From assembly GCA_039024555.1 (NCBI GenBank), contig JBCCQQ010000046.1:1-51508 (forward strand): a stretch of 51,508 nucleotides of DNA. The letters run 5' to 3'. Origin of the DNA: Cyanobacteria bacterium P01_D01_bin.156 (GTDB taxonomy: Bacteria; Cyanobacteriota; Cyanobacteriia; Phormidesmidales; Phormidesmidaceae). Positions 24,091 to 40,798 of the stretch are shown one piece after another. Within the stretch, counting starts at the first letter, position 1; each line of letters begins with the position of its first letter. A model generated the notes under the pieces. It had not been told where the DNA came from, made no database searches, and saw only the letters and a list, made by a program, of their open reading frames with translations. The position numbers were made by a program, and so were the translations under genes.

Positions 24091-24225
24091 ATGGCTAAGC
24101 AGACTAAAACAGAACTCTGGCAACCTCTTTCTGAGAAGCAAACGGCGCTCGTGAAAGGTGGTATGGCGCACAAAAATTACTACAAGGGGCCAATCCCCAA
24201 GCATCCAGGGCATTATCGCGGTTGA
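24091..24225 (+). CDS. Double-glycine-leader peptide precursor (44 aa): MAKQTKTELWQPLSEKQTALVKGG|MAHKNYYKGPIPKHPGHYRG
   Basis: Manual translation. Leader LWxxLSxKQxAxVxGG is shared with the 24439..24630 ORF, and a terminator follows. Confidence 0.78.
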   Translation: MAKQTKTELWQPLSEKQTALVKGGMAHKNYYKGPIPKHPGHYRG

Positions 24226-24281
24226 TAAGTAGGCAACAACTGCAATTAAGATTCAAAGGAACACACTTCAAAGGATAGCTG

Positions 24282-24310
24282 GGACTCCTGTTTTGCAGGG
24301 TCCTTTTTTT
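24282..24310 (+). terminator. Intrinsic terminator after peptide gene 24091..24225
   Basis: GGACTCCTG-TTTTG-CAGGGTCC followed by T7. Confidence 0.75.
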
Positions 24311-24319
24311 GTTTAGGGC

Positions 24320-24348
24320 AAAAAGAAACCCCAGCGGGTAACTGGGGT
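24320..24348 (-). terminator. Intrinsic terminator after peptide gene 24439..24630
   Basis: Minus strand ACCCCAG-TTACCCG-CTGGGGT-TTCTTTTT. Confidence 0.75.
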
Positions 24349-24438
24349 CAAGATATGTTTTTCTAAGCGTATGCTTAAGTTACCCACGTGAAGTAATCGG
24401 GCCAACAAAAAGGCCAGAGCCAGGTAAACCAAGGCACT

Positions 24439-24630
24439 TTAGCACAGGTCAGAATAGTTGTTTATAGCATTGGGTACGGGGCTCTCTCCGCGACCGGCTC
24501 CCGGTCTCCACCAGCCGCCGCCGTTGCCGCCGCCGTTACCAACTGGAAAGAGTTGACCGCCCTGGACGGTTGCTTGCTGCTTTTTACTGAGCTTAGTCCA
24601 AAGTCTTTTGGGGTTATTTTGAAATCGCAT
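24439..24630 (-). CDS. Double-glycine-leader peptide precursor (63 aa): MRFQNNPKRLWTKLSKKQQATVQGG|QLFPVGNGGGNGGGWWRPGAGRGESPVPNAINNYSDLC
   Basis: Leader matches the GG consensus (V at -4, S at -11, L at -12, W at -15). ATG at 24630, own terminator. Confidence 0.78.
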   Translation of the reverse strand: MRFQNNPKRLWTKLSKKQQATVQGGQLFPVGNGGGNGGGWWRPGAGRGESPVPNAINNYSDLC

Positions 24631-24960
24631 CGTAAATTCTCTGTTGATGTCCAATTATTGAAACCTGTAATCCGGTTAAAAACACCTAGGGAATCACGGA
24701 AGGTGGCATGAAGTTCGGGTGAAGGGGCGTTAACGGCATAAATTTTGGGGAACCACCCCATCAACGAAAGGGATGTCGGTTGGCAATAGCCTGATTAATC
24801 GAGCTGTCCTTTGATCTTGGACGTCGTTTATCACCATTGATAGCCTTTGGCAGACTGATGGAGCGCTGATTTGAGGATATAATTAGCGGGTTTGAAGCTA
24901 TGGGTTCGAACCCTTTGTCTGTCAGATTTTTTAGGCGCATTCTGTAGGAGGTATACAGGT

Positions 24961-25464
24961 ATGAAACGGTTTCGATCCCTGACAAGATCGATTGTGGGAG
25001 TCTTTTTGGTTGCGATCGCAACATTACTCGTCAGCTGTGGTGGTGACAACGTTGCCGCTCCCCCCACCTATACAGCCGATCAGCTGGCTCAGATTTCCGT
25101 ATATGCCAAGCGTATTCAAACATCTAAAGATCGTCTGCCCGAATTAGCAGGCTACATCCGTGACGATAACTGGGCTAATATTGACAACTTTATCCACGGT
25201 CCTTTGGGTGAGCTGAGAACCCGGATGAATCGCCTGGCGTTTTCACTATTGCCCGACGATAAAGCTGATGCCCTAAAGCTTTCCGATGAAATTTCGGAAG
25301 ATCTCGAAGCCATGAGTGCCGCTGTGGGCGTGTTTGATAGCAACCGTACCAACCAGGCCTATATTCGCTTTGCAAAGGACCTGAGCCTATTTCTAGATAG
25401 CGTCCCTAAGGCACCTGCTGGAGAGGATACTGCCAGCATCGCTGTGGAAAATGTTAACGTCTAG
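24961..25464 (+). CDS. psbQ: Photosystem II extrinsic lipoprotein PsbQ (CyanoQ)
   Basis: Lipobox LVSC, PPTYT..QL, FIHGPLGELR, LLP.D. AGGAGG RBS. Confidence 0.92.
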   Translation: MKRFRSLTRSIVGVFLVAIATLLVSCGGDNVAAPPTYTADQLAQISVYAKRIQTSKDRLPELAGYIRDDNWANIDNFIHGPLGELRTRMNRLAFSLLPDDKADALKLSDEISEDLEAMSAAVGVFDSNRTNQAYIRFAKDLSLFLDSVPKAPAGEDTASIAVENVNV

Positions 25465-25531
25465 GCGTTACTGATTTAGGGGATGAAGCGATTACAATAA
25501 TCGGTACCCATTTAATCCGTAACTTGAATCG

Positions 25532-26641
25532 ATGACCCGAATTGCAATTGTTGGTTGTGGCATTGTTGGCGCTACCATCGCCTACGAGCTGAGTCGCCAT
25601 AGCCAGTTAGACATTCACCTCATCGAGCAGCAAAATCCTGCCCAAGGCTCTACCCAAGCAGCCTTGGGCGTTTTAATGGGCATCATTAGCCACAAGGTTA
25701 AGGGCCGAAACTGGCGACTACGCCGGGATAGCATTGAGCGCTACAAAACCTTACTGCCTGAACTAGAAGCAGCTTTGGGGCGACAGATTCCCCATGTGCA
25801 AGGTCTTCTCAGTCTGTGTTTTGATTCAGACCAATTGCCCCGCTGGCAGTCTTTGCAAGCAAAGCGAGCGGACCAGGGATATGCGCTAGAAATTTGGTCT
25901 CCCGAGCAGTTACGACAGCAGTGTCCCCAAATTAATGCCCATACCGTTACAGCAGCTATTTTCTCTCCTGAGGACGGTCAGGTGCATCCCCACCAGCTTA
26001 CCCTGGCATTGGTGGAAGCGGCTAAACAGCGAGGGGTAACAACCCACTGGCAAAGTCCTGTCCTGGGACTAAAAACCCAGCCCTGCACCCAGCTACAGCT
26101 GCCAGAAACTACCCTTGATGCAGATTTTGTCGTGATATCGGCGGGACTGGACTCCGCTGATCTAAGCCAAATTGGAACAGAACCCCTACCCATGATTCCA
26201 GTTTTGGGTCAGGCCCTTGAACTAGAGCTAGACCAGCCTCTGGGACATGACAACTTTCAACCGGTGATTAATGGCCATGATGTGCATATTGTACCATTGG
26301 GAGAGAATCGCTACTGGCTAGGGGCAACGGTGGAATTTCCGCCAGGGGGAGAAGCCGTTGAATTACCCTTAGCAGAAGATCTTGAGCTAGCACCAGAAGC
26401 AGAACGGCTAGAGCACATGCGACAGATTGCCACGGATTATTGTCCGGCCCTGATTAAAGCGCGAATTGTGCGTCACTGGAGTGGGTTACGACCGCGCCCC
26501 CAGGGGCAAGGTGCGCCCGTGATTAAGCCCCTAGCTGGCTTGGAAAACGTGATTTTAGCCACAGGGCATTATCGCAATGGTGTATTGTTGGCTCCGGCTA
26601 CCGCAATGACGGTAGAGGCGCTGTTGGGGCTTTTAGATTAG
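25532..26641 (+). CDS. FAD-dependent oxidoreductase (DAO/glycine oxidase-like)
   Basis: IVGCGIVG, ST.AALGVL, WSGLRPRP, ATGHYRNGVLLAP. Confidence 0.9.
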   Translation: MTRIAIVGCGIVGATIAYELSRHSQLDIHLIEQQNPAQGSTQAALGVLMGIISHKVKGRNWRLRRDSIERYKTLLPELEAALGRQIPHVQGLLSLCFDSDQLPRWQSLQAKRADQGYALEIWSPEQLRQQCPQINAHTVTAAIFSPEDGQVHPHQLTLALVEAAKQRGVTTHWQSPVLGLKTQPCTQLQLPETTLDADFVVISAGLDSADLSQIGTEPLPMIPVLGQALELELDQPLGHDNFQPVINGHDVHIVPLGENRYWLGATVEFPPGGEAVELPLAEDLELAPEAERLEHMRQIATDYCPALIKARIVRHWSGLRPRPQGQGAPVIKPLAGLENVILATGHYRNGVLLAPATAMTVEALLGLLD

Positions 26642-27987
26642 CTCCCTAAACTGGCGATGCTTAAACGAGCTTTGCGCAGGAGAAACTGTAAAACAGTCTC
26701 CTGACCCACCTGAATATCTGCTCGTCCTTGCATACCCACACGAACATTACAGCGTTGGCTATGGTTCTCTAAATATAGTCTTTGGGGTTTTATGGTGACC
26801 TCATAGCTACCAGCCACAGAGCTTTCTGGCCCCACTCCTACCAAGGGCAGGTTCGTTGTCGCTGCAGACAAGGTGGCATCGGATAAGATATCTGTTACCG
26901 TCCCCTTAAGGACACCATAGTCTGGGTGGGGACAGCTCTCTAGACGCAGATTCACCAACTGACCAACTTCCACCTGGCTAATATTGGAGTTGGGCACCCA
27001 GGCCTTAATGACAAGAGATTCATCGACAGGGGCAATTTGCAACAACAGCTCACCTGGTTGAACAACTTGATTGAGGTTGCGCAAATTAGTGGTTTGTATT
27101 TGACCAGAGACAGGAGCTTTTAATTCCAGTTGCGATCGCTCCAGGGTCAGCCGCTCCAACAATGCCTGTTGTTGAGAAATTTTACCTTCCAGTACGGTAC
27201 GCTGTTGCCCCAGATGAGTTTGTTCCTGACTCATTTGATCAAGGGTTGCCTGGCGCTCTAATTTTGCCTGGGCAATTTTCTCCACAGCCTGGTCTACCAT
27301 GGCTCGATCCACTTGGTTGGCTGTTTGAGCCTGCAGTAATTGAGCATGGGCCGACTCTAACTGGGCCTCTCTTTCCAACACCGATAGTTGAGATACAGCT
27401 CCTTGGTCCGCAATCTGCCGATACCGATTTAAAGATTGTTCAGCTAGCTGAAACTGAGATGCAGCCACTTGCAGATCGCTATCAGCATCAGCCCGCCGCT
27501 GCTGGAACTGATGTTCCGTAAACTGCAGTTCTGTCTCTGCGATCCGAATCTCACGGTTCCAGCTTTGGGCGTTCGCCTGCCATTGGGATTGCATTAACTG
27601 TTGTTGTTGCTCCAAGCTTTCCCACTGTCGGCGCAGGGCCGTTAGCTCTTGCTGCGCTTGAGCAATGTGGGACTGCAGCTGGATATCGTGTAAAACAGCC
27701 ACCGTATCTCCAGCCTGCACCACATCACCCGATGTAACGACAATGGTTTTAACCAATCCTGTCTGAGGCGCTTGTACATGGCGCAATTCCCCTTGGGCAC
27801 GCACAATAGCCGCCGCTTTAACCTTGACACTGTAGGGGATAAACCAGCATCCGCCAATTGTCGCAACCAGGGTAAACAGGGCCGCTATGCCTCCCCCCCA
27901 TACTAAAGGATGGGGAGACTGTAAAAATTCTTCTTGGGCATTAATCTGAATCGTTTGAGAAACTAACTTTTCCATATTGGATGACAT
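26638..27987 (-). CDS. HlyD-family membrane fusion protein (type I secretion adaptor)
   Basis: N-terminal TM, GELRHVQAP..G.V..I.V..GD.V..GD, long coiled coil, APVSG, L..CP.PDYG.L.G.V, VGMQGRADI. Confidence 0.92.
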   Translation of the reverse strand: MSSNMEKLVSQTIQINAQEEFLQSPHPLVWGGGIAALFTLVATIGGCWFIPYSVKVKAAAIVRAQGELRHVQAPQTGLVKTIVVTSGDVVQAGDTVAVLHDIQLQSHIAQAQQELTALRRQWESLEQQQQLMQSQWQANAQSWNREIRIAETELQFTEHQFQQRRADADSDLQVAASQFQLAEQSLNRYRQIADQGAVSQLSVLEREAQLESAHAQLLQAQTANQVDRAMVDQAVEKIAQAKLERQATLDQMSQEQTHLGQQRTVLEGKISQQQALLERLTLERSQLELKAPVSGQIQTTNLRNLNQVVQPGELLLQIAPVDESLVIKAWVPNSNISQVEVGQLVNLRLESCPHPDYGVLKGTVTDILSDATLSAATTNLPLVGVGPESSVAGSYEVTIKPQRLYLENHSQRCNVRVGMQGRADIQVGQETVLQFLLRKARLSIASLGS

Positions 27988-28262
27988 ATATCACACATAA
28001 AAATACTTCTAAAAATAGATAACATCGAATCAACTATGCTTTAGTCGTAGTGACTTTATTAAAGCTATTAATAAGTTAGTAAGATAATTTTTCATCAACT
28101 CTAAAAATAGCCTTTTAGTATAACAAAAACTCTCCAATGATCTGATTTTAGCCATTAAAAATAATGGGAATATATTCTGAAAAATAACGTAAACCACTGT
28201 TCCTATGAGTCTGAAATGCCATTTACAAAGGGGATCTTTGATTTTATAGGTAAAAATACTCC

Positions 28263-28315
28263 CTAGTAATTAATACTAGATGGCTCTTGACGCACTGGTT
28301 TTGAATCAGTATATT
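28263..28315 (+). promoter_or_regulatory. Sigma70-like promoter with upstream palindrome for the peptide gene 28457..28603
   Basis: TTGACG (28287-92), 17-nt spacer, TATATT (28310-15). Palindrome CTAGTA-ATTAA-TACTAG at 28263-28279. Confidence 0.6.
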
Positions 28316-28456
28316 CCCTAATAGAGTCTTTTAGTGCTCGGTGAATATACGGTTTCAAAAATGTTAGATTCAACGATTTTTATTTGTTTGAGTATTCATT
28401 TTCCGTATATTCACTGAGCTGCTATGTTTATTTTGAGTTTAGGAGATTTTTGAGTT

Positions 28457-28603
28457 ATGTCTAAGTTCTTTTCAAAGCTATTGGGCCGCAAGCAAAACGA
28501 AAACACGACTGTTAAGGACTCCACGCCAGCCGTAACCAAAGATATTCAAGATTCTGAGGCTGATAAAGTCTCCGGTGGTCTTGGCTATGCTTCCTGGTGG
28601 TAA
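28457..28603 (+). CDS. Double-glycine-leader peptide precursor (48 aa): MSKFFSKLLGRKQNENTTVKDSTPAVTKDIQDSEADKVSGG|LGYASWW
   Basis: Manual translation. AGGAG RBS at 28441, IxxxExxxVSGG leader. Lies between HlyD and the C39 ABC transporter. Confidence 0.82.
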   Translation: MSKFFSKLLGRKQNENTTVKDSTPAVTKDIQDSEADKVSGGLGYASWW

Positions 28604-28944
28604 ACAAAACTGGTTCTTGAGGTTTGTTGAATTAGCCAATTCTCGGAGTTGGAGAGCACGAAGCGTCTAAATCTCCTTGTTTGAAGAGGCTGATTTTATC
28701 AACGATATTGGGGCTGCCTTTGTAGCAAATTGCTTACAAAGGTGGCCCTTTTACTATGTCGGCCTATGACATTAGATTTTTGATCCTGTATTTTGGAAAG
28801 TTTTTCGGAGCATTGCGTCCTCTGAATCAGCAGCGGCGCTATCTTTTTAACTATTTTTTTAGAGAGATAATTCACTGAATCGAAAACAAGTTGGCACAAT
28901 AAAAGGGCTCCTCTGGGGGTGATCCCGTTGTTTTCATCGATTAG

Positions 28945-31158
28945 ATGCGGCGAAAAAAATATGAATGCGTCCGGCAGCATGGGTATGAGGATTGTGGCGC
29001 TGCCTGTATGGCCACTGTCGCCAAAAGCTATGGACGTGCCTTAGCCCTATCGGAGGCCAGGGAAGCGGTCGGTGTAGGAGCTTTGGGCACTACCTTACTA
29101 GGACTGCGGCGGGGGGGAGAAGCCCTTGGGTTTAAGGCTCGACAGGTGCGGGCATCTAAGGAACTATTGTCCCAGCTATCAACGGTTCCCCTACCTGCGA
29201 TTATCCATTGGAAAGGGTGCCACTGGGTAGTACTCCACGGTCAGCGGCGGGCTAAATACATTATTGCTGATCCCGCCGTGGGGTTGCGATGGCTCAACCA
29301 ACAGGAGCTTATGGCAGCCTGGGATGGGATCATGTTGTTGCTAGAGCCCGATGAAATTCGGTTCTACAGTCAGGCTAAACAACAAAAAGTAACAGGCGTG
29401 CCATCCCCATTACGTCGGCTGTGGCCCTATCGAAAACTGTTGCTTGAAAGTTTAGGGCTGAATGTGGCAATTGGCCTGATCGCCTTAGTGATCCCGTTTT
29501 TAATCCAGATTCTAACGGACGACATTTTGATCGATGGCGATCGTCGAATGTTAACAATCTTTGCTTTGGGGGCAGGGGTATTGACCCTGTTTAGCACCCT
29601 ACTGGAATGGATTCAGCGCTCCTTAGTTGTTTATGTTGCTCAGCGGTTTGAACTGTCGTTTACCCTAGACTTTGGTCGACAGTTACTGCAGCTGCCCCTA
29701 ACCTATTTTGAGACCCGTAACAGTGGGGAGGTGTCTGCTCGACTTCAGGATATTCAAATTTTTAATCGGCTGTTGCTAAAAACTCTGGTTCTCCTACCTA
29801 GTGAAGGGTTTACGGCTATTGTGGCCTTGATTTTAATGGGGGTGTACAGCCCCATCTTGACCCTGTGGGCCTTAGGGTTAGCCGCTGCTATTTTGGCTCC
29901 GATTGTGATTGCCTGGCCCACCTACCAACAGCGGGCCAGAACCCAATTAGTCATGGCGGGGGAAAATTTGGGACTGTTGGTGGAAACCTTTAAAGGGGCC
30001 ATGACCCTCAAATCGATTAATGCTTACCCCCAGCTTTTGGATGAACTGCAGCGACGGTTAGGACGTTTGGCAAAATATAACTTTGAGACATTGGGGTTTA
30101 ATATGACCCTAAGCCTGATTGCCAAGCTGATGATCGGGTTAGACACCATTGTTATGCTGTGGTTGGGGGGGACTCTCGTTAACAGCCAGCAGATTAGTGT
30201 GGGACAACTGCTAGCGGTTTACAGTCTCAATCGTACACTCACCCTATTTCTTCTTCGCTTGGTAGAGTGGGGGGATGAATTTGCCCAGGTGAGAGCGGTT
30301 ACGGCCCGTATTCTCGACATTATTGAAACTAAACCTGAACAGAGACAGTTTGCGGCTTCTGTGGAACTGTCGGAAGCGACCGATGGGGTCTCTAGAAAGC
30401 AGGGAACGGCATCTCTTCCCTTTGTGGAGTTTCCCATGGATGTGGCAATCACCTGCACAGATGTTTCATTTTGCTATGGGGGGCGCATGGATTTACTCCA
30501 GGACTTTTCTGTGGCAATTCCGGGGGGTAAAACAACGGCGTTAATCGGCGAGTCGGGCTGTGGGAAAAGCACCTTAGTCAAGCTGATTTCCGGCTTATAT
30601 TCTCCTAAAAGTGGCAATATTGCATTTGGCCCTTACAGCTGCGACGATGTAGCTCTGGATTGTTTGCGGCAGCAGGTGCGTTTAGTGCCCCAGGATGCCC
30701 ACTTTTGGCAGCGTTCTATTTTAGAGAATTTTCAGTTGACTAATCCCCATCTCTCATTTGAGGAGATTGTTGATGCCTGTCAGCGAGTCCAGGCCCACGG
30801 GTTTATTTCCCAGTTACCCAACAAATATCAGACGGTGTTGGGTGAATATGGTTCGAACCTGTCAGGGGGACAAAAACAGCGGTTAGCGATCGCACGGGCG
30901 TTAATCAATCAGCCAGCGGTGCTAATTCTAGATGAATCCACCAGTGCATTGGACCCCATTGCTGAAACCAATCTGCTCAATACCCTAGCGGACTATCGCC
31001 AGGGTAAAACCACCCTAATGATTAGCCATCGGCCCCAGGTAATTAGTCGAGCCGACTGGATTATTTTTCTAGAACAGGGCAAAGTTAAGCGGGTGGGACC
31101 ACCCCAGGAGCTATTGAAAACCCCTGGCAGCCATCGCTATTTTCTAGAACATTGTTGA
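28945..31158 (+). CDS. Peptidase-containing ABC transporter (C39 peptidase + TMD + NBD; PCAT)
   Basis: QHGYEDCGAAC, HWVV, IADPA (Cys/His/Asp intact). GESGCGKST, LSGGQKQ, LILDE, ISHR. Confidence 0.95.
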   Translation: MRRKKYECVRQHGYEDCGAACMATVAKSYGRALALSEAREAVGVGALGTTLLGLRRGGEALGFKARQVRASKELLSQLSTVPLPAIIHWKGCHWVVLHGQRRAKYIIADPAVGLRWLNQQELMAAWDGIMLLLEPDEIRFYSQAKQQKVTGVPSPLRRLWPYRKLLLESLGLNVAIGLIALVIPFLIQILTDDILIDGDRRMLTIFALGAGVLTLFSTLLEWIQRSLVVYVAQRFELSFTLDFGRQLLQLPLTYFETRNSGEVSARLQDIQIFNRLLLKTLVLLPSEGFTAIVALILMGVYSPILTLWALGLAAAILAPIVIAWPTYQQRARTQLVMAGENLGLLVETFKGAMTLKSINAYPQLLDELQRRLGRLAKYNFETLGFNMTLSLIAKLMIGLDTIVMLWLGGTLVNSQQISVGQLLAVYSLNRTLTLFLLRLVEWGDEFAQVRAVTARILDIIETKPEQRQFAASVELSEATDGVSRKQGTASLPFVEFPMDVAITCTDVSFCYGGRMDLLQDFSVAIPGGKTTALIGESGCGKSTLVKLISGLYSPKSGNIAFGPYSCDDVALDCLRQQVRLVPQDAHFWQRSILENFQLTNPHLSFEEIVDACQRVQAHGFISQLPNKYQTVLGEYGSNLSGGQKQRLAIARALINQPAVLILDESTSALDPIAETNLLNTLADYRQGKTTLMISHRPQVISRADWIIFLEQGKVKRVGPPQELLKTPGSHRYFLEHC

Positions 31159-35327: not shown

Positions 35328-35558
35328 TTATCGTAAAGGATCTAAGGGAATAAACCCATTTGGCAACAGTACAGAATATCAAATGTCTTCTATCTTCAGA
35401 TAAAATCGCCTCGATTATTAGTAACGGTAAACGTTTATCCAAAATGTTGTTTCAATGTTTTGAATTTGTTGTCTGATTAATCAGGTGATTTTCTGATGGA
35501 GCGGAATTACCTACACACAAACTGTAGAGATGGAAGTCTTGTATTTACAAAAATCCCT

Positions 35559-36764
35559 ATGATTATCCTGAACTCAAAGTCGTTACGGCGATGGGCCGGA
35601 TTATTTCTGGCGGGTTTGCTGAGTAGCTTAATGGTGTTTAGCCAGCCAGTTGCTGCCCAAACTAACTTTTGTGAAACCCGTGATATTCCTAACAATGTGG
35701 CCCAGGGACGCAGCTATGGTGACCCCCATATTAATACCTATGATGGATTTCACTATACGTTTCAAACCGTGGGTGAATTTATTTTGACTTATTCGGGCAA
35801 TGGTACCCTCGCCTCAACTAACAAATTTGGCGAAGTCGCCAGTGTTCGTAAGTCGGCTAATAACTTTGGCGAAATCGCTAATGCTAATGTGCCAGGTCGT
35901 GACTTCGAAGTGCAGGCCCGGCAGAGCCCGGTACCCAATCGCGACAGCCTTTCCCTAAATACGGCAGTGGCCATGCGGGTATGTGATCAGCGGGTGGGTA
36001 TGTATGTGCAAGATAGCCCCGATGGACGCAGTCTGATGTGGGTGGATGGTACGCCCATCCAGTTTGTGAATGATGTATTTCCCTTGAACAACGGTGGCGA
36101 AATTCAGCGTCAGAACGACCGCAACTACACCGTTATCTGGCCCAGTGGTGACCAGGTCGCGCTGAAGATTATTAACGTTAGCGGCGTTGAGTTTATTAAC
36201 ATCATGCCGATTGTGGGTCGCGATCGCAGAAATACCATGGTTGGCCTGCTAGGAAACTTCAACGGTAACCCTGACGATGATCTAGTAGGTCGTGATGGGA
36301 CCCGACTGGCTACCCGGTCCACCTACAGTGTGGCCACCAATACATTAAGCCGTGCCCTGCCCGCTGCGATTCCTGTTGCTGAACTAGAAACCGCTTACTT
36401 TGAGCAGCTAAACCGACAGTTTGGCGATAGCTGGCGCATTACCCAGGCTGAGTCTCTGTTTGATTACCCTGTGGGGATGACCACCGCTAACTTTAGCGAT
36501 CGCAGCTTTCCTACTCAATACATCTCCCTAAATAATGCTAGCCGTGAAGAGCTGGATGCAGGCGTTACTGCCTGTAGAGAAGCAGAGGTGCCTGAAGACC
36601 AGATGGATGGATGTGTATTTGATACTGTTGCCACTGGAAACAACGGTTTTGCCGATGCAGCTGTGAATGCGGTGGCAAACGTAGCAGCGCAACGAGTACA
36701 GGATCAGATTGAGGATGAAATTGAAAAAATAATTCCTGGTGGTTTTCGCCTTCCGTCGTTTTAG
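35559..36764 (+). CDS. Secreted von Willebrand factor type D (VWD) domain protein
   Basis: Signal peptide, GDPHINTYDG..YTFQTVGEF, GLLGNFNGNPDDD, FGDSWRI...SLF, C.FD. ORF is open from 35496. Confidence 0.85.
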   Translation: MIILNSKSLRRWAGLFLAGLLSSLMVFSQPVAAQTNFCETRDIPNNVAQGRSYGDPHINTYDGFHYTFQTVGEFILTYSGNGTLASTNKFGEVASVRKSANNFGEIANANVPGRDFEVQARQSPVPNRDSLSLNTAVAMRVCDQRVGMYVQDSPDGRSLMWVDGTPIQFVNDVFPLNNGGEIQRQNDRNYTVIWPSGDQVALKIINVSGVEFINIMPIVGRDRRNTMVGLLGNFNGNPDDDLVGRDGTRLATRSTYSVATNTLSRALPAAIPVAELETAYFEQLNRQFGDSWRITQAESLFDYPVGMTTANFSDRSFPTQYISLNNASREELDAGVTACREAEVPEDQMDGCVFDTVATGNNGFADAAVNAVANVAAQRVQDQIEDEIEKIIPGGFRLPSF

Positions 36765-36913: not shown

Positions 36914-39900
36914 CTAGGCGCTCTTCGACTTTCGCAACATCTGAAACCATTGGTGCAATAACAGCACCCGAATGCGATAACAATCATACCCATTGGGATG
37001 TTCTTTCTGTTCTACAATGCCTAGATTCTCTAATACATGCACGGCATCTAAGCATTGAATTTCCGACAGATTCAACTTACTTGACAGAAATGCTAAGAAT
37101 GTTCTGGCTCTCAGCCACCCATCTACACTATTCGACGCTGTTGTCAGTACACTTGCTGCATTTAGCACCCGATGCACCTTGAGTTGCGAATCGTACTGCC
37201 GCAGCTCGCTAATGATTCCATGTTGCACATAGGCTTTTAGGGACTGATCTCTAAATGTTTTACGCAGCTGCATTTGAGCAAAGGCAAAGGGAATGCGGCG
37301 ATTGGTCAGATAGCCGCTTTGATTAATGGCTTTTTGTACCAAAAAACTAGCCAGCTTACGAATCAAAAATGGATGACCACCGCTCAATTGATGGATCTGC
37401 TGAATCACCTGTTGGTCAAACTCCCAGCGCATCAAACTACCAATGCTGTTGATCAATAGCGATGTTTCTAATACCGAGAATGGCGTTAGAAAAGATTCTT
37501 TGAAAAACCGATGGAGCGGATTTTTGAACGTCTTTGAAAAACGCCACTGCTTGATGCGATTACATTGGGGATGAATTGCGGTGACCACCAATGATAAACA
37601 CTGTTCCTTACGGCTTAACGCTCTCAGGGCACCAAAAACAAAGTTAAATTCTTCTGCCTTTTCGTCAAACTTTTCGTGAGATCTGGGAAATACTCGGTCT
37701 AGGTTGTCTAGAAAACATAGTACAGGTAGTTGATAACCTGCCCCCTCGATAGATTTAACCAACCGTCGAAAGCATCGATAAAACTCATAGGACGATTCCT
37801 TGATGGGCTGTCCCGCTTCAGTCAGTAACGGTGGCTGTTCGAGTAAGGGATTGCGATATTTGCCCAGGGCGTAAAGACTTTGCAAAATGTTATCCAACAG
37901 CTCGATCCCATAGCCGATGCCAATATCGCTGTATTTTTGCATGTCGATGTGGATAATGGCATGGTCTCGACAACGTAGGGCAAGCTGGTGCAGGATAGAA
38001 GACTTGCCAGACTTGCGTAAACCAAACAAGCCTACACTTTGGTTATTGTTGAGGTCCACAATTAGCTGGTCTAACAGCTGTGTGCGGCCAAAAAACAATA
38101 GCGGATCGTGAATAGCTTTTTTGTCTTGAAAGAAATCGACGGTATTGCTGTATTGACTTACTTGTTTGAGCAGTAGCTTTTCGCAGGTATCCCGACTGGG
38201 TAAAGCGGTCTCTACTGCATCTAAAGCTACGGGGACTACGGTAAAACTTTGTTGGAGTCTGAGGTCGGCCATCCGTTCTCGGGCCGCCTTTGTGGGTAAA
38301 TCCTTATATAGGACAATTCCCATCAGCTCTGGGTTGGCATTGCGAATGCTGTCGGAGCTTTCGTATAGCTCATTAACAACATCTTGAGATATCACCTCTG
38401 ACGTAACATTGACCCAAAGTGGTGGCTTAATGCCAAACTGGTCCGGTATGTCTCGAATTAAAAAGCTACCGTTGTCAGATTGTTTAGCAACGGCCCCGAC
38501 CTGGTCTAAAAAGCTTTGGGCCGCCAGTAGTCCTGGACGGTCGCCACCGGCACTTAAGGAAAGAATCTCTTCCTGTACAGATTGCCATTGTTCTAAAGAA
38601 ATGCGCTTAGCCTCTTTGCGACATTTTAACAACAGCAGTGTGACATATAAACAATCTTGACAGGCTTTAGCCTCAGCTTTAGAAAGGGTCAGCCAGGCTT
38701 CTTGGACTTTGAGGATGCCCAAACAAACGTGTTTGAGATCGTCTAAAAACTTCTGGTGAACGTGGCTGGGATACCGAATGCCTGGAATATTTAAGCTCAG
38801 ACGGTTTAGCTGTTCAAATAATGATGGAAAATCGGCATTGGCAAAAATCTCGTTGTTTCTGAGATCCGTATCAATGGTTGCCGGTTGCTCATGGTTTTTG
38901 AGATAGCGCATACTGCGAACGCTGGCGCGTTTACGAAGCTGGCTAGCCAGCGGTTTAGCGAGTGTAACGGCCTTTTTTAGATCGGTCTGGGTGCGCTTTC
39001 TAAAAACAGGATCGCCTAGTTTTTTTGTTGTTTTGACCTGTCGGGATACGGTGTAAAAGGCGTTGATAAGCAGAGTGGTCAGGGTGAGATCACTGGTGGC
39101 ACGTAGGTTGTAGATAAATGGCTGCAGCAAGGTTTGGATAATTTCCAAATCACCCTTAAGCTCAGGGCTTTCGGTGAGAATGCGGCTATAGTGAAACGCT
39201 CTGTATAGGGCATTGGCGCGCTTTTCGATGAGTTTGTCTGGGGTGGGTTCATCAGCGGTTACCTGGGTGGCCCACAGCCATAGGGCACTGAGTTTGTTGG
39301 TATTGATAAATCCTTGGGCGACTTGGTTAAGGTAGCGCAGTAGGTTAATGACGTTGGTTTCGTCATACTTAAGACCGGCAATGAGTAGAAATACCTCTTC
39401 CCATCGTCTGTCGTTGGCATACTGACGCACTATTTCTGACAGGGCGTGGTTGGTGTAGTTTTCATGGATGTATTTAGCCGCCAAAAATTCTTGGAAGGTG
39501 AGGTGCGAAAAGGAGTAAATGCCTTCCGATTGTTCAACCAAGATCCCTTGCTGAATTACGATGGCGTCTAGAATATTTTCTCCGCTGAGGTTGCTGGGGG
39601 CGTTGAGCTCCTGTAGAAGAAACTTGCGAATGTGTTTAACCAGATTTGCTTTGGTCAGTAGCAGGTTGTCTGCTTTGAATGCTTCGTAGGCAATCTCAGC
39701 TAGCAGTTTTTCTTCTAATTCGATGTGCAATCCTTCATAAATGGTATCTTTGGCCACACGCTTTTCTTCAAACCAGCGTTTTAGCAGAATGCGTAAACCC
39801 TGGTGATAGAGCATACTGCGATTGCCCGAAAAGGTGTGGGAACGGCTGTAGACCAGGCAGAGAAATGTGAGTAGCAAGGGGGTTTGGGCCAGCTCGCGGA

Positions 39901-40798
39901 CGGCTACGTTATCGGCTTTCTGCAGGGACTTCCAACAGGTTTCGGCAGCCTCCACATCCCCTGCCTCGCCAGCGGCAAACCAGTTGTAAATAAAGCTTTT
40001 GATTTGTTCTTCCCCATTGCCGGCTAGGGAAATTTCGCGAAAGCTAGGGGACGGAGAACGATAGGCGGCTGTCCGACAGGAGATGACATAGCGATTTTTG
40101 CCATACTGTTCCACCAAAGCTTCAATGCGATCAAGCACCCTGTGGTGGCTGTGGGATGAAACCTCATCTAATCCATCAAACAGAATTAAAAACCATCCTC
40201 TTTTCAGGACATTTTCAGTAATTTTCTCGCTCTCTGGAAAATCAAATGTATCGAGTTCTCGGGTAATGTAGTTCTGAAAACTTAAGTCTGCCTCAGCAAA
40301 CTTTCTCAAATCAATCCAAATTGGTAAACAGAGATATTGATAGTTGGTTTCCTGGGCATCTCTGAGGGCATCTAACCCAATTTTTCGCATTAGGGTAGTT
40401 TTGCCGGCGCCAGGGGGACCAATTATGGATAGACACGGGGTTTCATTGGCGATATCTACAATTGTTTTTTGGGGAGCCGTTGTTGCTAGTTCAGGCTCAC
40501 GCCGGGTGCGACAAGCTTTTTCCATGTCGTCCATGGACATGGGTTGGTTCAGTTCACTGTTTTCTACTAGCTGTAGGGGAACATATACAGACTCTAGGCT
40601 GACGGGCTTACTCATGCCCAATATTTTGAGATTGCCGTGGCGTTCCCGGAATTTGTTGACGTAGGCGTGAATAGCAGTAAAGACGGCGCGTTCTGTCTGT
40701 GGCCCAGGACGTTTTTTGAGTAAGCCGAAGAAACGACCTTGCCTACTCCCCAATGCGTCAATAATAAGGTTCGCTAACGCTTGGGTATGTGGAGACAT
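36914..40798 (-). CDS. NACHT NTPase fused to a second C-terminal STAND/AAA-like ATPase
   Basis: NACHT: GPPGAGKTT, FDGLDEV, ISCR, TPLLL, FSHLTFQEF. Second module: FFGR, GLRKSGKSS, FLDNLD, SGGHPF. Confidence 0.88.
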   Translation of the reverse strand: MSPHTQALANLIIDALGSRQGRFFGLLKKRPGPQTERAVFTAIHAYVNKFRERHGNLKILGMSKPVSLESVYVPLQLVENSELNQPMSMDDMEKACRTRREPELATTAPQKTIVDIANETPCLSIIGPPGAGKTTLMRKIGLDALRDAQETNYQYLCLPIWIDLRKFAEADLSFQNYITRELDTFDFPESEKITENVLKRGWFLILFDGLDEVSSHSHHRVLDRIEALVEQYGKNRYVISCRTAAYRSPSPSFREISLAGNGEEQIKSFIYNWFAAGEAGDVEAAETCWKSLQKADNVAVRELAQTPLLLTFLCLVYSRSHTFSGNRSMLYHQGLRILLKRWFEEKRVAKDTIYEGLHIELEEKLLAEIAYEAFKADNLLLTKANLVKHIRKFLLQELNAPSNLSGENILDAIVIQQGILVEQSEGIYSFSHLTFQEFLAAKYIHENYTNHALSEIVRQYANDRRWEEVFLLIAGLKYDETNVINLLRYLNQVAQGFINTNKLSALWLWATQVTADEPTPDKLIEKRANALYRAFHYSRILTESPELKGDLEIIQTLLQPFIYNLRATSDLTLTTLLINAFYTVSRQVKTTKKLGDPVFRKRTQTDLKKAVTLAKPLASQLRKRASVRSMRYLKNHEQPATIDTDLRNNEIFANADFPSLFEQLNRLSLNIPGIRYPSHVHQKFLDDLKHVCLGILKVQEAWLTLSKAEAKACQDCLYVTLLLLKCRKEAKRISLEQWQSVQEEILSLSAGGDRPGLLAAQSFLDQVGAVAKQSDNGSFLIRDIPDQFGIKPPLWVNVTSEVISQDVVNELYESSDSIRNANPELMGIVLYKDLPTKAARERMADLRLQQSFTVVPVALDAVETALPSRDTCEKLLLKQVSQYSNTVDFFQDKKAIHDPLLFFGRTQLLDQLIVDLNNNQSVGLFGLRKSGKSSILHQLALRCRDHAIIHIDMQKYSDIGIGYGIELLDNILQSLYALGKYRNPLLEQPPLLTEAGQPIKESSYEFYRCFRRLVKSIEGAGYQLPVLCFLDNLDRVFPRSHEKFDEKAEEFNFVFGALRALSRKEQCLSLVVTAIHPQCNRIKQWRFSKTFKNPLHRFFKESFLTPFSVLETSLLINSIGSLMRWEFDQQVIQQIHQLSGGHPFLIRKLASFLVQKAINQSGYLTNRRIPFAFAQMQLRKTFRDQSLKAYVQHGIISELRQYDSQLKVHRVLNAASVLTTASNSVDGWLRARTFLAFLSSKLNLSEIQCLDAVHVLENLGIVEQKEHPNGYDCYRIRVLLLHQWFQMLRKSKSA

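Follow-up and report, generated by a model that had tools for sequence, protein, structure and literature searches.

Gene P3, in a stretch of Cyanobacteria bacterium P01_D01_bin.156 (contig JBCCQQ010000046.1, 51,508 nucleotides; below, the window), encodes a double-glycine (GG) precursor beside a C39 peptidase ATP-binding cassette (ABC) exporter, or PCAT. Its core, LGYASWW, is also the repeat head of a secreted NF038122 metalloprotease encoded elsewhere in the same genome. The heptapeptide is probably the free form of the WW-ended variable segment that is tethered in this metzincin-RTX protein, and the sequence match suggests that the two forms share a function. The exporter architecture is already known and the link between P3 and the protease repeats looks new: searches of the literature, subscription papers not included, turned up neither the variable slot of NF038122 and its repeats nor an exported free copy. 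The features concerned are listed here, with positions in the window unless another contig is named.

28457..28603, plus strand: P3 precursor, 48 aa, with a 41-aa leader ending Val-Ser-Gly-Gly and the core LGYASWW (28580-28600)
28945..31158, plus strand: short-type C39 peptidase ABC exporter (PCAT), 737 aa, with Gln11, Cys17, His93 and Asp109
26638..27987, minus strand: 449-aa HlyD-type adaptor; it runs divergently from P3 and the PCAT and makes up the inserted cassette's left arm
27988..28456: AT-rich divergent intergenic region, holding AGGAG at 28441-28445
28710..28749, plus strand: 16-pair hairpin followed by a T run, between P3 and the PCAT, putatively terminator- or attenuator-like
contig C78, 9632-13573, minus strand: NF038122 metalloprotease-repeats-RTX protein, 1,313 aa
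contig C72, 130-2537 (locus L048): NF038122 protein

The C78 protein carries LGYASWW 12 times letter for letter, plus one variant, at the heads of 16-residue repeats. It scores 247 bits with NF038122, against a cut-off of 80, and has the sequence HEIGH at 179-183. Two PEP-CTERM paralogs on contig C72, also over the NF038122 cut-off, have two heads each, one being LGYAGWW. By chance, 5.3e-4 copies of LGYASWW are expected in the 4,791 open reading frames (ORFs) of the genome. None of 2,519 permutations of the heptamer occurs in these ORFs, and a single one of 400 control heptamers from other cores was matched anywhere in them. The heptamer is absent from the 218 other protease homologs, and Ala occupies head position 4 in none of the 652 heads of the 101 other RTX-type homologs. 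A scan with the P3-core pattern gave, among 151, matches only here plus one chance Cys variant. P3 encodes its Ser with TCC, all 12 repeats use AGC or AGT, and blastn of the P3 region against C78 and C72 showed no similarity; the match is therefore one at the protein level.

Free peptides with WW ends also occur elsewhere. A GTDB scan of 185,579 species genomes with the pattern GG-x-G-[YH]-x-x-WW-stop, which itself fixes part of the motif, gave 20 loci, 19 judged to be chance and one real (L099). This last, in a Saprospiraceae metagenome-assembled genome, has four tandem precursors with the cores LAYGQWW, LGYGQWW, EEFDPLYTGYSQWW and LGYGEWW, one of them without an ATG. A profile of five precursors found three matches among 1.84 billion representatives; one, from another sample, is new and ends YSQWW. 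LGYGQWW is present in 7 of the 218 protease homologs, LGYGEWW in 3 and GYSQWW in 14 (LAYGQWW in none), and the positions that the pattern leaves free also fit the protease heads. All six free cores found end exactly at WW, and two Saprospiraceae-type cores start EEFD, like the spacer start QEFE. The L099 genome has three C39 exporters, on other contigs. Duplicated lipoprotein-like genes lie upstream of the Saprospiraceae array (L099:8-430 and L352, genome G167), one with a Cys/Trp-rich, bacteriocin-like tail.

These data also bear on a purely historical origin, in which a leader gene picked up a repeat head and now encodes either a small antimicrobial of the ordinary sort or a relic, the two sequences having no function in common. 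A change from the Gln codon to a stop takes one base, the pairing is seen in one genome, and the cassette is a lineage-specific insertion. Capture nevertheless appears improbable, since the Ser codon box differs and the flanking DNA shows no similarity, yet the heptamer tracks the rare variant of this genome, and like cores arose in another phylum.

The NF038122 model (NCBIfam, metallo_LGF) spans the catalytic domain only. At least three heads are present in 69 of the 101 other RTX-type homologs, with 30 different dominant heads. Among the 16 proteins with 13 units, a set that includes paralogs and close kin, heads are 0.84 identical within a protein and 0.60 between proteins at the same position, whereas spacers are 0.42 identical within and 0.56 between. 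Heads are apparently homogenised within a protease and spacers keep their positional identity, as in a multicore precursor in which all copies of the core change together. The C78 protein likewise has the repeated near-identical cores with conserved flanks of such precursors. Gln directly follows the head in 593 of 638 cases, and the Tyr of the head is not conserved, His, Pro, Trp and Phe also occurring there.

The shorter homologs have a single variable slot. An alignment of 107 of the 118 runs from a constant helix, with Tyr at its end, through a variable stretch to Trp-Gln; the constant flanking residues are Met (99/107), Tyr (97/105), Trp (82/102) and Gln (88/102). A strict parse, which took in 68 of the 118, gave 65 distinct segments in these 68 proteins: Arg/Ser-rich, aromatic, Gly-rich, Cys loops, WGYxGWW and NLGYGQWW. 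The slot precedes PEP-CTERM or RTX tails (proteins P0228-P0345 and the C72 protein).

The modelled protease domain is metzincin-like (MMP-2, Z 11.7, rmsd 3.3, 138 aligned residues; leishmanolysin, Z 10.1) and its HExxH motif is intact. In the models this confident domain comes first, and the repeats and slot segments are of low confidence with no firm fold. Foldseek returned nothing at E 0.001, and the Atlas gave no usable match for the slot region and P3 matches below 0.9. The tethered segment could be a bait or an autoinhibitory loop with which the free heptapeptide competes, tuning the cell's own protease or absorbing foreign ones. The slot lies immediately after the catalytic domain, and its segments (Arg-rich, aromatic, Gly-rich or Cys-looped) would suit a bait region; among the protease rows of Foldseek, karilysin in complex with the inhibitory peptide SWFP ranks highest, though at E 0.043. 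Such a decoy is unlikely, given that the Saprospiraceae genome has peptides and no detected protease and that thirteen copies exceed what an inhibitor needs.

The PCAT has C39, ABC membrane and ATPase domains (PF03412, PF00664 and PF00005, all over the Pfam cut-offs, with C39 starting at residue 6) and lacks an N-terminal nucleotide-binding extension. The Cys/His/Asp triad reported by the first-pass annotation is intact (Cys17, His93, Asp109), and Gln11, Walker A, LSGGQ and the H-switch were also read by motif. Its closest homolog is 55% identical and 1,919 of 8,000 scored proteins pass 1e-150; judged by these homologs, it is an orphan exporter within a common family. The divergent minus-strand HlyD gene noted earlier is borne out by PF13437 over the cut-off, while TIGR01843, at 160 bits, stays below its cut-off of 208.65. 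Scans of the window proteins show the HlyD adaptor in the cluster and neither a second, peptidase-less ABC protein nor LanM. GC content falls to 30% in 28001-28500 from about 50% around it, and promoter-like matches in the intergenic region are at chance level (7 found, 7.1 expected). The AGGAG lies 11 nt upstream of the P3 ATG, and the 65-nt stretch containing the hairpin folds at -30.5 kcal/mol. TolC-type genes are on other contigs.

The translations agree with the coordinates and cores first given for P3 and for two further GG precursors in the window, P1 and P2 (below). The leaders of all three have Val at -4, Leu, Leu and Ile at -12, and Thr, Gln and Ala at -7 instead of the usual Leu, the hydrophobic reference positions -4, -7 and -12 being those of PMC6363468. 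Cleavage after GG and export by C39 PCATs are established for the family (PMC6363468, PMC4997328). The C39 domain would thus cut P3 after Gly-Gly, and unmodified LGYASWW would leave through HlyD and a TolC encoded elsewhere, a route that the anatomy makes very likely. It had been proposed that this transporter frees the cores of all three precursors; the proposal is well supported for LGYASWW and weak for P1 and P2, which belong to a dispersed leader family found beside another type of exporter.

On the tethered side, the protease would clip its own repeats at Trp-Gln, releasing peptides that end in LGYASWW with a free C-terminal WW. Because the free cores end at WW, the heads are so regularly followed by Gln and two cores start EEFD, this cut would give equivalent products. 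Both products would then act as a strain-variable extracellular ligand, a signal or kin cue, for a receptor. This whole scheme, a strain-variable WW-ended ligand made free and tethered by two routes with protease cleavage and secretion as predicted steps, is the favoured reading and is put forward tentatively. A bolder and more doubtful extension is that cyanobacterial NF038122 metzincins are fused, self-processing precursors of strain-variable peptides, the GG route making the same WW-ended peptides here and in Saprospiraceae, with signalling or eavesdropping across phyla in biofilms. If true, biofilms would have a peptide language, so far undescribed, that different phyla use in common.

Several points weigh against a ligand made by two routes. 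The pairing of free peptide and repeats is known from one genome, and the L099 genome has no match to the protease alignment. No peptide combining GG with the genome's own head was found in 22 other repeat-bearing relatives, a search in which the number of matches was near that of the reversed control, listed matches being read by eye and 33 loci in context. Scans of 172 family, 400 class and 250 Saprospiraceae-family genomes brought up no further free peptide. A metagenome scan gave 102 loci, 47 with a true stop codon and none with a leader. Ala-4 is not wholly private to this genome, LGYAGWW also occurring in one homolog from another sample. The cassette lacks a receptor gene; no sensor gene was found among the window proteins scanned, and a receptor elsewhere was not sought. 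The head and spacer identities come from a set containing kin, and short-patch gene conversion can homogenise heads without selection; it cannot account for the match between P3 and the heads.

A general co-occurrence of free peptide and repeats was not borne out in the relatives, family or class scans. The free form is rare, or it occurs in layouts that the patterns miss, since these need a fixed layout and would pass over longer or divergent cores. One wider genome scan gave about 85 matches, of which 30 + 3 loci were read in context. In genomes G017 (L002:3645-3824) and G050 (L380:1399-1596), a GG precursor lies directly upstream of a PCAT and its core contains LLLPAVQAAREAA, a motif of planctomycete DUF1559 prepilin-like proteins. 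The G017/G050 core with its LLPAVQ motif was considered as a parallel case and set aside, as it is single-copy in each genome with no second copy. Precursors of one further conserved PCAT-linked type (L011, L013, L019 and L029, in genomes G014, G004, G003 and G015) have His/Ser/Tyr-rich cores with a conserved Gln-Ala-Leu-Phe-Ala-like tail.

No RiPP (peptide made on the ribosome and modified after translation) maturase family was found in the 36 window proteins scanned, in line with the earlier statement that no classical maturase is nearby. The only radical SAM gene in the window scan, 13 kb away, carries DUF3641. YcaO and Trp halogenase were not found genome-wide, with controls matching, in a search that left out ATP-grasp and P450 families; LanC was not found either, and there the control also gave no match. 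A Tyr/Trp core cross-linked or modified in trans to a small RiPP, with the repeats as further substrates, would fit the aromatic-rich heptamer, and both repeated-motif cyclophane precursors and the heptapeptide darobactin exist (PMC12957482). This is highly improbable: the genome's only SPASM enzyme is a conserved one, shared with 19 of 21 genus relatives (86-92% identity), neither YcaO nor Trp halogenase was found in the genome-wide search (P450s not included), and the Tyr of the head varies.

By gene content, the cassette is one of the short-type maturase-less clusters of PMC3140520. Like the group III cyanobacterial bacteriocin clusters there, it has a short C39-ABC exporter, HlyD and small GG precursors, with no modifying enzyme listed; it differs in its single 7-residue core, in an adaptor divergent from the exporter and in a core shared with a protease elsewhere. 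No P3-type motif was found in five supplementary files of that paper, which may lack some precursor tables. PteB and EbfG1-4 of Synechococcus elongatus PCC 7942 are similar in having a catalytic-Cys PCAT, GG-leader peptides and no sign of a maturase (PMC4997328, PMC9981879), a likeness drawn from descriptions rather than sequence comparison. They are a tested case of PCAT-exported GG peptides with a social function (PMC4997328). Because both precede it, the suggestion of an undescribed system was wrong as regards architecture.

The EbfG cores are 6-7 kDa matrix proteins from a four-gene operon, whereas the cores here have 7, 20 and 38 residues. EbfG1-3, exported by a like PCAT, form amyloid (PMC9981879, PMC4997328), and in a comparable way Trp-rich repeats on a surface adhesin might co-assemble with the free peptide by matching sequence. 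The C78 protein has RTX repeats, and homotypic assembly would account for the matched heads. A role in matrix or adhesion is improbable to much the same degree as the decoy, as seven residues are set against EbfG cores of 6-7 kDa and in most family members the slot holds just one segment, charged or Cys-looped.

HetC of Nostoc PCC 7120 is also a PCAT proposed to export a signalling peptide, but it is of the long type with a nucleotide-binding domain, while the PCAT here is short (PMC10986499). N-terminal PVC-metallopeptidases resemble the proposed ligand precursor in having a constant N-terminal enzyme and autoproteolytic release of variable cargo; they are a different enzyme family, and the cargo here is a short peptide with predicted self-processing (PMC3482391). 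No function has been assigned to hundreds of cyanobacterial GG precursors, and neither a density-dependent biofilm inhibitor nor the HetC cargo has yet been identified. In the present case the exact ends of a motif are marked, the exported heptapeptide being equal to the segment that varies in a widespread family of secreted proteases yet to be studied. This supplies a probe that is cheap to synthesise, a prediction of the cleavage site and natural variants with which to test specificity. ComC-type GG pheromones are signalling peptides exported by PCATs, and differ in that this cassette has no adjoining two-component receptor. Borosins and BURP peptides are fused enzyme-core precursors with repeated cores.

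The exporter architecture and the P1 and P2 peptides would be ordinary by themselves. These two precursors and the genes that set them apart from the cassette are as follows.

24091..24225, plus strand: P1, a 44-aa precursor of the 'LW' leader family with a basic core of 20 aa, between a TPS-CHAT gene and psbQ
24439..24630, minus strand: P2 precursor, 63 aa, leader family of P1, 38-aa Gly-rich core, convergent with P1
24892..26641, plus strand: psbQ and a ThiO-like oxidase gene, host genes separating two insertions and outside the peptide system

The three precursors were first described as lying around the HlyD/PCAT pair, but psbQ and the ThiO-like gene intervene. thiO was detected in 18 of 21 genus relatives, and all 18 loci have both psbQ and thiO. 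These loci were inspected for 1.5 kb on each side, two of them ending at thiO, and none matched P1, P2, P3, HlyD or the PCAT. The TPS-CHAT gene abuts psbQ without P1 and P2 in seven of the loci; thiO abuts mpaB in four relatives, and mpaB or the next gene closely follows it in six more. As the relatives' loci carry neither group, synteny rules out a single three-precursor locus and indicates separate entries of P1+P2 and of HlyD-P3-PCAT on either side of psbQ and thiO, the latter group of three being a lineage-specific three-gene cassette. The ThiO-like gene (25532-26641) encodes 369 aa, compared with 370-390 aa where relatives have it intact. It overlaps the stop of HlyD, and its end may have been trimmed when the cassette inserted.

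P1 and P2 belong to the LW family (leaders with Leu-Trp...Gly-Gly), which has 24 small ORFs on 16 contigs of the genome. A genome scan with a leader hidden Markov model, as had been suggested, gave 40 bits for P1 and 33 for P2, both of which seeded the model; 21 members score at least 24 bits, and the best of 148,375 reversed decoys 13.3. A P2 paralog with 67% amino acid identity is on contig C90. The motif [WYF]-Cys-x-x-Thr is present in 16 of the 22 cores captured by one pattern and absent from P1 and P2. LW cores mostly have a single Cys (for example loci L268, L272 and L274), and orthologous cores are kept in G013 (L374, L394). A maturase for the family was not identified. Some NF038122 slot segments end Cys-x-Arg-Thr-Trp-Gln, resembling the LW-core motif. 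LW arrays adjoin TPS/CHAT genes in several cases (here, G013, G016, G020, G021).

The cores of P1, P2 and P3 are unrelated to each other, as first noted, and each has kin elsewhere. The locus was also called unannotated; the public protein collection includes P2 and P3 as exact sequences and lacks P1. Pfam and NCBIfam gave nothing firm for the small peptides. The CTB bacteriocin family NF038167 has similar cyanobacterial GG leaders, and P1-P3 match neither it nor any other NCBIfam model. Three of 30 P1/P2-family members match NF038167 weakly (best E 0.0026); the other 27, P1 included, have no match at E 0.05. The radical SAM/SPASM enzyme on contig C55, 1.3 kb from two members, was rejected as a maturase of this family: it is in 19 of 21 genus relatives, most of them without LW peptides. 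In G013 (75% complete), where the Cys motif is present, the enzyme was not found.

The leader family recurs in relatives. It was matched in 8 of 61 genomes, the matches in G046 and G050 not being true members. In G016, G018, G020 and G021 its members adjoin an exporter of the type on contig C49; the exporters in G016, G020 and G021 share 74-78% identity with the C49 exporter and 51-53% with the PCAT of the window. Since the family adjoins this type in four relatives, P1 and P2 are probably a separate cargo, that of the C49 exporter, with cross-export between exporters possible. Contig C49 (19995-27669, L032) has two convergent short PCAT-HlyD pairs, a double cluster also present in G016 and G021. 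The first C49 exporter has Asp-Arg-Trp where the second has the catalytic His, and may be peptidase-dead. In G021, LW peptides and two TPS genes separate an NF038122-RTX protein with mixed heads (L102:6375-10580) from the C49-type exporter about 7 kb away.

Further along the window, a minus-strand gene (36914-40798) encodes a 1,294-aa NACHT and second STAND ATPase protein, possibly related to defence, and an adjoining plus-strand gene (35496-36764) encodes a secreted protein with a von Willebrand D domain.

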